Shown one piece after another: positions 11,601-14,819 of a stretch of 64,000 bases of DNA (position 1 is the stretch's first letter; each line of letters starts with the position of its first letter). The stretch is taken from NCBI GenBank assembly GCA_964282835.1, contig OZ196157.1:60600-124599 (forward strand), read 5' to 3'. Source of the stretch: an uncultured Granulicella sp. (GTDB lineage Bacteria; Acidobacteriota; Terriglobia; Terriglobales; Acidobacteriaceae). The notes beneath the pieces are model-generated. The model searched no databases, was not told where the DNA came from, and saw only the letters and a list, made by a program, of their open reading frames with translations. The position numbers and the translations under genes were made by a program.

Positions 11601-12801
11601 GCTGCTGTGCGGCCTCGCGGCGGAGCAGCGCGCGGGCTTTCGGCTTCTCGTCCTGCTTGCGCCCGAGCTCGTCCAGCAGGTTCACCGACAGCTTGTTGAT
11701 GGAGGCCTGCACCGCGGCCAGGTAGGTTTCGTCCGCCGTGATCCATGTGTCGAAGTCACGGGTCGCGACCGTTGTGCCCTTGTAGGTGGCGGTCATGGCG
11801 AGCTGGGGCGGCATGGGAAAGGGCGTTGCCGCCGGAGCGGCCTGGTCGGCCGTTTTCACCTCTGGCGGCAGTTGCACTTCAAGCTGGAATAGATTGCCGA
11901 GCAAGGCGGAGAGGTCCGCATAGGGGAGTGCAAGACCATCGGAGTTAGCCGCCAGGTATTCGCGGGCCGTCACCAGCTGCGCCTGGGTGATGGTACGGTC
12001 GAGTTCCTGCTCGGGCGTCCCCTTGGCTGTCTCGCCGGAAAAGCTGGACGCGATCCACAGGTAGGTGTCGCGCAGCAGCCGGGTGTAGGAGGTGTAAGTC
12101 TCCGTGCCCTGAGTGCGCGACTCGTCGCCCATGAAGAGGTTGACTGCATAAACGGCGGCCTGCGTCGCCTTGGTCTGGCCGGTACCGTCGATCGACAGCT
12201 GGGGCACGAAGTAGACCGTAAGCGGCAGCTTTCCGTAGATAGGAGGCGCGAGCGGAGCCAGGTTGGGTCCGCTCCCGGCGAATGCCTGCGCCGCCAGCAG
12301 GCGCGACGGCCAACGGCGCACCTGCGTGGTAATGGGCAGGCGCGCAAGCGTCTTGCCGTCGCAGTACCAGGGCGCGTCCTGCAGACGGTCCGTGCCGAGT
12401 ACAAACTGCTCGCGGATGCGCGCGGAGAACAAGAAGTTGAGCGTGATCTTGAAAAAGCCGCAATAGATCTGGAAGGAAACGGCGACTTGCACGCCGGCTT
12501 CGAGGGTGATGGTGGTGGCCCCGTACTCTTCAAAGGTGCCCTTGATGTAGATGTAGACGGTGAGGCTGACCTTGGCCTTGATGATGGCGAAGTCGACCGT
12601 GCCCACAATCTTGCCGACCAGCACCAGGGTTCCGGTCACCTTGTAGTAGTAGTAGGCGCTCGACACATCGCTGCTGAAACCAGCGGCGGCGAGAGCGCGG
12701 GCCCGGGAGTCGAGCTGCGCAGCGAGTCCGGATGATCCGCCTGCAAGCAGCGCGTGGCTGGTGTCGTAGGGGTGCCAGATGGCGATAACGCCTTTGATCA
12801 T
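5698..12801 (-). CDS. Giant hypothetical protein (2,367 aa) with two blocks of degenerate LysM-like modules; function unknown
   Basis: Uninterrupted 7.1-kb ORF with consistent G/C-ending codons. No signal peptide or TM helix, and no catalytic or classical adhesin-repeat motif seen. LysM-like modules at aa ~430-620 and ~1050-1190. The start is uncertain (see findings). Confidence 0.9.
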   Translation of the reverse strand: MIKGVIAIWHPYDTSHALLAGGSSGLAAQLDSRARALAAAGFSSDVSSAYYYYKVTGTLVLVGKIVGTVDFAIIKAKVSLTVYIYIKGTFEEYGATTITLEAGVQVAVSFQIYCGFFKITLNFLFSARIREQFVLGTDRLQDAPWYCDGKTLARLPITTQVRRWPSRLLAAQAFAGSGPNLAPLAPPIYGKLPLTVYFVPQLSIDGTGQTKATQAAVYAVNLFMGDESRTQGTETYTSYTRLLRDTYLWIASSFSGETAKGTPEQELDRTITQAQLVTAREYLAANSDGLALPYADLSALLGNLFQLEVQLPPEVKTADQAAPAATPFPMPPQLAMTATYKGTTVATRDFDTWITADETYLAAVQASINKLSVNLLDELGRKQDEKPKARALLRREAAQQRSLANFVFGDYFTMLAQGLVQDALDAFENYSYLLAPGDSIASICTALNALGSGTENQLTPEVVAWQNRQHPLASATLTISGVPYRIADKNTLGGIATAFGLTASGIAMANAMVEMVLIPGQTIVIGTAGHPVPNRATLEKTAAAFTLTVAAFADSIAAMAGVLNPLTVLTLNGIAYATGTSNTIVSVADRFGIDVPTLTSSIASVQDLFDRTADPRLTLPGLSVLSNRSLWANIEASSGVAHLSGMAGRYLLNGLRLPTAGLTFSDPTHPCKTTATCGFESLTGQQFPLPSLTDYNPAAPLTITLTNPASLSWVAFPSAAAGFGFNVPAEAARQVEDLVLYARGTGLSAPIQAPQAVDLALSRPRQFTFKNNIVLQRAAPVPLPSVLTGATLRPRIWNFSAALLNELSRPVSLAPLYGIEIGSTNANGGRLLPRKAMGYGFATLINVAIKSVTVASADAAQSSKTTYELLGADEVGVNLLQRLLRATTPNDLSLIDGVYIVYPPNQSGNRAEGLQYDSAERYTTFLVQANLSAETNPPASLAKSRLAATPKRGLLNTPYEFLSILWQGSIVRSGGFYLDYVLPDGSGFPDVLFNGDRVANISVVVVYKALEEKTGADGGVLRDFMNAALVDDPVDDANDVVYLVSRSRPASVELTTATTLAAVSATHQLGVGDIARANPGKLLSTAASVAVTSIAHLVGRGQTLAAIVARFGSSEVAIRALNPNVDFNNLAAGTGLHIPDLTALPAATTPGLTLPEIALYYSTTVDALAWANRDWPGLYDVAGGNLIFDDQLLNEQGTMQPGNVGIVVTRTNPGNGDDSRSYLEQQYNLLGFDQIANTDTLAIAGALPLPAGPATDEDQQLLDAAGPLRSAPRAASDTEPWVYRLLVPAARAARNNPVPASTATELYPAREANPYAGSGGFIQLQLDWRDLMGNRTWSPFEDAAAGNSYPLPTPLSRIGANDDVIGLGQWPSTQYDHLFRRNAADTGAELHIGWSFDPSRYVPQSAGDQGWLPNAEADRQVFALLYYQMVQTVRDGSDLLHVSTVCTLAGDTPVRVTAAERTAIVAYVLAAWRYVDTVYRTKATPPATNLPQNVDLARSITPAAGQTIVEILVSVRLEREISGVLPEFRDNAASRLAESVIAPRLSKPNQTTGYTLDEYTRSFEAAFQQASSSLRLASGTPRADLGGQGGADTLWAVRLGKTATEPYAVTIKNPAIFFAVAPLSTELQNRPNVTLYTFTPEQGLSATPDQTQTYTGIDLDLWAANALATIDTVLQPQYAVPAFLVDSIGGTSYLAQILLAKRLLADAIVTGMTNILSEPAITTTSKPANFQAARDKLKQQLLIKLANAYAIDAVVQYELQVAAPATTAPAIPPHYYGNPVDPTQVENAADYTASSFKIPLEPTNPLLTFTFAARDASQQSSFKVPFQYRPTHIEHAVEALAAMDGYEASSCLNFIDPPAPLALTTGESSIAVEIPIPLRAYPAAPTLLNQDFVPTPIGTDQTANLKAAKQWAFRFFYAQVHALQNRIDAVVRFNVPQTAQLSAFTVEEPDLFVLLARLNFVLPDLQAVFARDLLGIHVATATTAGDFVRSRNALSALGFLLGNLAAQWKLWTARQAGAEDALLTATKEDVPFSVLEDAVTVSSGSVDEIMRLRVVIAYTVPLPKGIAAPGILFDGFTAEPTDPDASASRELLQQSIRGRQRGNAHEDVRAGLLATAHRMGDAAPTIERKAWLYKRINPQPGQDLYLGWDEAQLIPQRTAEIAQLDVTQYQNAWSGIQITRNADLVGTANPTRRPFIYTTPEVQFRNKLTPLLDTAATIDVAQVPSGTTEKRTLNGHLTALFSTFFADSPAKTQIVKLEVRYAYRLAETAALPAIEMPVLLYPASDFQIPASWQTSLTANTGPVTRADIYIANVAGEVANWFATDSPSRLGGCLYFDLSAFSSLSNNTQPIVRVRNLSLAIIDVTGLE

Positions 12802-14819: not shown

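Follow-up and report, generated by a model that had tools for sequence, protein, structure and literature searches.

The window (the whole stretch of 64,000 nucleotides (nt) of Granulicella sp. DNA analysed here) carries on its minus strand an open reading frame (ORF) of 2,367 codons, referred to here as the megaprotein gene, and directly upstream of it a gene for an NHL-repeat lipoprotein-like protein. Between the TGA of the NHL gene and the ATG of the megaprotein gene lies a leader of 167 nt (12802–12968), which is unique in the genome and resembles coding sequence in all three of its minus-strand frames. The features of the locus, with their coordinates in the window, are as follows.

12969–14819, minus strand: NHL-repeat lipoprotein-like gene, 616 amino acids (aa), the upstream neighbour (Pfam NHL, E 6.2e-12; alignments with paralogues from the genus extend to residue 616 of 616).
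12924–12968, minus strand: junction or spacer, predicted to hold the breakpoint of a deletion or replacement; in none of its frames does it resemble the megaprotein family.
12885–12923, minus strand: putative relic piece A (DPTSGTFLPVIEF), which spans 13 codons of the NHL frame and matches the homologue block ..GNFTPVVEF / ..SGTFNPVIIF.
12884, minus strand: first putative extra base, the C of TTC-C-GGC (the base within the CC pair is not resolvable), shifting the frame from A to B; a 1-nt gap in 4/4 homologue DNAs.
12818–12883, minus strand: putative relic piece B (GLSLQVGWGKTINFAILSAGIS), 22 codons in the second frame, found by second tblastn matches of 5/20 homologue queries and by a profile match.
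12817, minus strand: second putative extra base, the G of TCC-G-GTT (the base within the GG pair is not resolvable), shifting the frame from B to C; a 1-nt gap in 4/4 homologue DNAs.
12802–12816, minus strand: putative relic piece C (VTIVG), 5 codons that precede the ATG and are in frame with the ORF; 20/20 first tblastn matches pass the ATG.
12799–12801, minus strand: the ATG taken as the start; in relatives an Ile codon (ATA, ATC or ATT), one base change away, in 31/31 loci.
5698–12801, minus strand: retained ORF of 2,367 codons, matching by blastp the C-terminal two thirds of a giant protein with a LysM domain, and with a complete C-terminus (LysM, E 1.4e-11).
12798–12896, minus strand: 32-codon GTG frame ending in ATGA, made up of piece A's last codons, B and C read out of frame, and overlapping the relic pieces.

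All four sequence observations of the original prediction, which was made from the letters alone, are present in this leader. Beyond the TGA of the NHL gene (12971–12969), the same frame remains open for 28 codons and reads ..DPTSGTFLPVIEFRPEPAG.. on the minus strand; in TFLPVIEFR, 9/9 codons end in G or C. The sole start candidates in this frame are TTG 12902 and GTG 12896, and a Shine-Dalgarno (SD) core is absent before both. The second frame is coding-like over 12883–12818 (piece B), and within it the stretch 12880–12827 has G or C at the end of 17/18 codons, ATT being the exception. The third frame reads ..EYPVTIVG and then MIKGVIAIW.., continuous with the 5698–12801 ORF. Finally, a GTG-initiated frame (12896–12798, 32 codons plus stop) terminates in an ATGA that overlaps the megaprotein ATG (12801–12798), and none of GGAG, GAGG or AGGA was found in the 25 nt preceding that ATG (GGAATATCCGGTTACTATCGTCGGC). 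Read in their homologous frames, the pieces end in G or C at 10/13 (A), 19/22 (B) and 4/8 (C) codons; the corresponding value for the whole 5698–12801 ORF is 0.82.

The coding signal in the leader exceeds chance. When profiles built from homologues were run against every six-frame piece of the 4.25-Mb genome, leader frames ranked first: a 22-residue block found its best genome-wide match in the leader's second frame (E 1.2e-5; next best 2.3), and the 15-column block that precedes it in the homologues found its best match in the leader's first frame (E 0.086; next best 2.0), adjacent to the other and collinear with it.

A database search with residues 1–400 of the megaprotein returned 25 proteins (P0003 and 24 others). 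In tblastn searches of the whole genome, the N-terminal parts of 20 homologues matched this place only, with nothing else at E ≤ 1e-3. Every one of their first high-scoring segment pairs (HSPs; 20/20) extends 5–10 codons beyond the ATG in the ORF frame, and 6/20 queries gave a further HSP in one of the other leader frames. When each of pieces A, B and C was aligned on its own to a set of 11 aligned homologues, they fell side by side and consecutively, with ..GNFTPVVEF as the homologue counterpart of A, GLGLQVGLGKS.S.GILKAEIS as that of B, and VTVFG, directly before the Ile/Met position, as that of C. The counterparts of A and B are contiguous in the homologues (..EF GLG..), and the leader's ..AGIS followed by VTIVG.. 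is collinear with their ..AEIS VTIFG... In DNA alignments with four homologue loci, the window has exactly two extra columns of 1 nt (4/4 homologues), which the protein register places at TTC-C-GGC (~12884) and TCC-G-GTT (~12817). By our own count from the alignment, 27/40 relic residues are identical to those of P0004.

From this comparison, the three coding-like leader frames are successive pieces of one ancestral frame, split by two single-base insertions; it is because these insertions fall within surviving ancestral codons that coding-like sequence would appear in all three frames in succession. The 32-codon frame overlapping the ATG would likewise be a by-product of the two insertions. 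One of the two alternatives offered originally, a longer N-terminus broken by two +1 shifts through recent decay, agrees with the collinear pieces and with 4/4 homologue DNAs; its estimate of the missing length, about 45 aa, falls far short of the ~1,000–1,500 aa indicated by full-length homologues. The check proposed with it, aligning orthologous loci for one continuous frame, bore it out: homologue proteins and 4/4 homologue DNAs read through in one frame. Both insertions generate the same pentamer, TCCGG (window 12884 and 12817), possibly by coincidence; the density of CCGG (sites per kb) is 33 in the 122-nt relic, 10.7 in the ORF and 8.7 in the genome.

How much was lost can be estimated from the homologues. 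Apart from P0003, which comes from a separate assembly and is a protein of 2,366 aa that is 98.2% identical to the window protein and has the same MIKG start, the homologues are 2,747–4,098 aa long, and the family normally measures about 3,400–4,100 aa. In 20/24 of them, an HSP begins with query residue 1, which lies opposite their residue 507–1,491. Eight full-length close homologues place query residue 1 opposite residue 1,048–1,083, with 49–58% identity over the whole query (blastp), and more distant ones place it opposite residue 987–1,491. The lowest value comes from P0004 (residue 507), whose gene fills its 8.8-kb contig and is hence incomplete. For P0024–P0027, the alignments begin at query residue 48–52, opposite residue 1,049–1,088. 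The C-terminus is complete, in that query residues 1 to 2360–2367 align with residues ~1,050–3,450 of the homologues. The sole length difference from P0003 is one Tyr in a YYYY/YYY run at aa 50–53 (window 12640–12651), where homologues have YYY.

A scan of one genome per species gave 42 loci from many phyla, 31 of which have a tblastn alignment that reaches query residue 1. In 31/31 of these, the codon at the position of the megaprotein Met is Ile (ATA, ATC or ATT), and this column is invariant in the 24-sequence alignment A2 (I251). Across the 42 loci, the frame goes on upstream of the Met equivalent; it does so in all 31 that reach residue 1, and is open for 990–1,722 codons in 28/31; the exceptions are L002 (162 codons), L009 (213 codons) and L032 (contig end). 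Thus, the outcome that had been named as refuting a longer ancestral gene, orthologues beginning at the equivalent Met, was seen in none of the 31 loci. In L002, the giant gene (L002:10001–20359) is split into three ORFs (10001–11707, 11653–12975 and 12875–20359). L002 and L009 are both 'MFD' metagenome-assembled genomes (MAGs), and their broken frames may be assembly indels or further independent decay.

Judged against these relatives, the ancestral protein is predicted to be roughly 1,000–1,500 aa longer than the product of the present ORF, and the Met-first ORF corresponds to its back two thirds. Because everything upstream of ~12923 is gone from the genome, repairing both shifts gives no native N-terminus. 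The absence of a signal peptide or other N-terminal features from the ORF is uninformative on the native protein, because the ORF comprises its C-terminal two thirds.

The breakpoint can be confined to the spacer. A 68-node profile of the conserved block that precedes piece A had no match genome-wide (best E 2.5), and against the three local frames of 12900–13010 its best score was −2.9 bits. Because the NHL paralogues of the genus align to the last NHL residue (616/616), the 3′ end of the NHL gene appears native, and, since no family similarity lies upstream of ~12923, the breakpoint would fall within 12924–12968. Piece A happens to share the NHL frame. Further upstream homology in a third frame, seen at the left edge of alignment A3, was not supported by the local profile search. 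A repeat search of 3500–21000 for repeats or mobile-element ends at the junction gave short, low-identity pairs only.

The loss extends to a neighbouring gene. A partner gene encoding ~1,170 aa lies directly upstream of the giant gene in 40/42 loci, the other two being cut by contig ends, and in four loci the partner match falls within the giant ORF itself. No partner was found in this genome (tblastn, E ≤ 1e-4), nor were the ~250-aa neighbours or any further piece of the N-terminal region; in window 1–40000, profiles for the N-terminal 1,020 positions, the ~1,170-aa partner and the ~250-aa neighbours found nothing (best 7 bits). We ruled out a split gene with its N-terminal part elsewhere, as the 20 homologue N-termini and the profiles matched nothing in the complete genome. 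Insertion of the NHL genes into the megaprotein gene was also ruled out, there being no 5′ relic in window 1–40000.

Taken together, these comparisons make it very probable that a gene lost its 5′ third, was then frameshifted and left the leader as its stump. The ancestor would have been a horizontally acquired giant LysM-domain gene with a product of about 3,400–4,100 aa. A deletion or replacement would have removed its first ~1,000–1,500 codons and also the ~1,170-aa gene ahead of it, and the same event would have fused the remainder to the 3′ end of a native-family NHL lipoprotein gene at a breakpoint within 12924–12968. The 40 ancestral codons left upstream of the ATG would then have acquired two single-base insertions (~12884 and ~12817), gathered there because these codons are presumably no longer translated as part of a protein. 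The present start would be ATG 12801, at the position held by an Ile codon in every alignable relative, and the retained ORF would still be expressed and under purifying selection.

Expression signals around the junction are sparse. Within 12500–13300, neither sigma-70-like promoter sites nor intrinsic-terminator-like sites were found (0 of each). At E ≤ 1 no Rfam model matches the leader, which folds no better than shuffled sequence (z −0.78; 41/200 shuffles fold at least as well). Transcripts of the NHL gene probably read through into the retained ORF, given that no terminator-like site lies between them, and translation probably begins at or near the new ATG. An SD core precedes 34% of confident ATG starts in this genome (vs 10% background), and because the proportion is only 34%, its absence from the megaprotein ATG is uninformative. 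In-frame GTG codons deeper in the ORF, noted by eye, are also possible starts.

Is the retained ORF under selection? The 122-nt relic holds both indels and the 7,104-nt ORF holds none, a distribution for which uniform placement would give (122/7226)^2, or ~3e-4 by our own arithmetic. The window protein (P0001) and P0003 differ in 42/2,367 alignment columns, and both keep the frame. Only 3 of the 41 scored differences fall in columns that are invariant in eight other homologues, vs 14.2 expected, a roughly fivefold avoidance reached in 0/20,000 permutations; the test assumes that P0003's gene is truncated like the window gene. A start of P0003 at the same Met fits such a shared structure.

Several observations weigh against a retained fragment that is expressed and works normally, and some of them against the account of the leader itself. 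A gene caller might prefer the same ATG in P0003 regardless of truncation. The two insertions rest on one assembly, and two indels in 122 nt are many for a relic still 27/40 identical to P0004. The cut falls inside a continuously conserved block, with invariant columns from ~160 residues before the junction to ~120 after it, so that the first module of the retained fragment is incomplete, and the fragment stands without its near-universal ~1,170-aa partner. In a quick maximum-likelihood tree, the branch to the window protein measures 0.60 vs 0.27 for its sister P0004 (sister grouping 98 SH-aLRT), and unique changes at sites conserved in other homologues number 181 vs 65 for P0004. Constraint on the window lineage may thus be partly relaxed. 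The loss of about a third of the protein and of the partner gene, the cut through a conserved block, the accelerated lineage and the missing promoter-like site also speak for another reading, in which the whole of 5698–12923 would be a dead pseudogene, truncated so recently that its long ORF has simply not yet closed. We regard this as unlikely, because the downstream 7,104 nt have escaped indels, two strains that differ at 42 columns both retain the full frame, and their differences avoid conserved columns. On balance we lean towards a fragment that is under some purifying selection with partly relaxed constraint. That the headless fragment is a working neo-gene, selected without its N-terminal third and partner, carried on the NHL transcript and started from an ATG derived from an invariant Ile codon, with the relic ORF maybe loading ribosomes, is a tentative extension that we think doubtful.

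Two further explanations concern the shifts themselves. If both were miscalled, the real gene would read through the leader in one frame, and it is true that both are single extra bases in two-base runs, that both create TCCGG and that the relic residues are otherwise well preserved. Removing the two bases, however, adds only ~40 homologous codons, after which come non-homologous sequence and the NHL TGA, and with ~1,000 missing residues nowhere in the complete genome the truncation is left unexplained. The adjoining ORFs (7,104 nt and 1,851 nt, 8,955 nt together) are unbroken despite 76 and 28 CCGG sites, and because they are unbroken, an error rate high enough for 2 indels within 122 nt is not credible. 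Systematic basecalling error at CCGG was rejected on the same 104 sites, none of which carries a shift. Moreover, P0003, from an independent assembly, starts at the same Met. An assembly or sequencing error is therefore most improbable: given the missing residues, the branch of the original prediction that proposed one does not account for the truncation, and given the unbroken flanking ORFs it is unlikely for the two shifts. Programmed recoding from GTG 12896 or TTG 12902, with two +1 shifts adding 40–45 aa, or a dedicated ORF for ATGA coupling, was the second alternative raised originally. The ATGA overlap and the missing SD are real, no terminator-like site separates the ORF from the NHL gene, and an ORF that looks selected must be translated somehow. 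Against this, the frame is continuous in 31/31 loci that reach residue 1 and 4/4 DNA alignments lack the shifts, so there is no conserved shift site; the sites here are CC and GG pairs rather than slippery runs; and the leader shows neither a fold better than shuffles nor an Rfam match. The 32-codon ORF is mostly an out-of-frame relic without an SD of its own and has no counterpart in relatives, and, since most starts in this genome lack an SD, initiation calls for no special device. Recoding or coupling seems to us the least plausible of all, and this alternative did not survive the comparison with relatives, which read straight through.

The preferred account, a truncated stump, places the ORF in a family of giant LysM proteins. 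The window protein has a LysM domain at aa 1096–1139 (Pfam PF01476, E 1.4e-11), as do P0006 and P0004, and LysM was the only match of the family in Pfam, NCBIfam, PHROGs and PDB profiles. A literature search, from a limited listing and with no claim of absence from print, found nothing on such giant LysM proteins. As an identity for the lost region, DUF6603 (PF20248) found no support: the first 1,750 aa of the homologue in L024 had no Pfam match at E ≤ 5, and hhalign of A2 with a genuine DUF6603 protein gave a probability of 0.95%, the comparison covering the 500-residue block around the junction only.

The ~1,170-aa partner has no Pfam or PHROG match (e.g. L004:4245–7760 and L024:4014–7514), and in L024 it overlaps the giant ORF by 4 nt. 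A relationship of the partner to the megaprotein as a paralogue, suggested by single-linkage clustering, proved an artefact: compared directly by blastp, the two are not similar, and the partner is thus a conserved neighbour. In 19 loci, genes for one family of ~250-aa proteins, mostly in pairs, also lie upstream. In the closest full-length locus, that of a Blastocatellia MAG (L002:3607–5003), two upstream ORFs of ~200–260 aa contain collagen triple-helix repeats (Pfam, E 6.7e-21 and 6.1e-14). The partner, the ~250-aa genes and the giant LysM gene look like a conserved, uncharacterised module shared across several phyla.

As judged from its distribution, the megaprotein gene is foreign, a horizontally acquired gene that now adjoins a gene of a native NHL family. 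The megaprotein was found in 0/216 other species of the genus, and a JGI metagenome scan gave 92 pattern matches, none a relative. The NHL family, by contrast with this foreign gene, is present in 96/121 genus genomes, often in many copies, a count that includes G094, flagged unpublished. This lipoprotein-like family is strongly expanded in the genus (window copies at 12969–17017), with at least 10 matches scored in the genome studied here (G000) as well as in several relatives, and the window's NHL copy is only 45–46% identical to its nearest orthologue. Synteny of the giant gene with NHL, collar or GNAT-like genes was not borne out, collar and GNAT-like genes lying within 10 kb of it in only 1/42 loci. 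In that locus, from a Terracidiphilus MAG, the partner genes and the giant gene are preceded at L024:214–1286 by a tail-collar gene that shares 36–44% identity with the three collar genes of the window, and by a homologue of the ORF at window 18866–19384. A joint arrival of the collar triplet (17088–18702) and the megaprotein gene as one island is hinted at here, which at 1/42 loci is a lead only.

The odd three-frame coding signal is thus traced to a gene stump and not to recoding, and the annotation changes: the 2,367-aa 'orphan megaprotein' is the C-terminal two thirds of a member of a widespread, uncharacterised giant LysM protein family. If the fragment is maintained by selection, these two thirds would be a unit able to act alone, a hint for dissecting the family.

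Among known systems, prfB (RF2) is a case of programmed +1 ribosomal frameshifting, in which the coding signal goes on in the +1 frame. The leader is similar in that its coding signal also continues in the +1 frame; it differs in having two shifts 67 nt apart, in lacking an in-frame stop and an SD-like stimulator at the shift sites as well as a functional upstream ORF, and in not being conserved in relatives. In many operons, translation is coupled by a stop codon that overlaps the next start (ATGA), and here too the TGA of an upstream frame overlaps the ATG. In contrast to such operons, the upstream frame is a 32-codon out-of-frame relic without initiation signals of its own. The giant LysM family (P0004–P0027; L002–L043, from Acidobacteriota, Bacteroidota, Pseudomonadota, Actinomycetota and others) is closer: its closest members are 47–59% identical to the window protein over 2,367 residues and share the position of LysM and the complete C-terminus, whereas the window protein is without the N-terminal 1,000–1,500 residues and the ~1,170-aa upstream gene. 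The locus most resembles a 5′-truncated gene with a decaying remnant, which is an ordinary, known kind of feature: collinear homology ends at the breakpoint, the upstream codons are frameshifted, and an unrelated neighbour abuts the stump. It is the retained fragment that is mildly interesting, since, unlike the typical remnant, its 7.1-kb part is still one open frame with signs of purifying selection, and its start is an ATG that replaces an otherwise invariant Ile codon.

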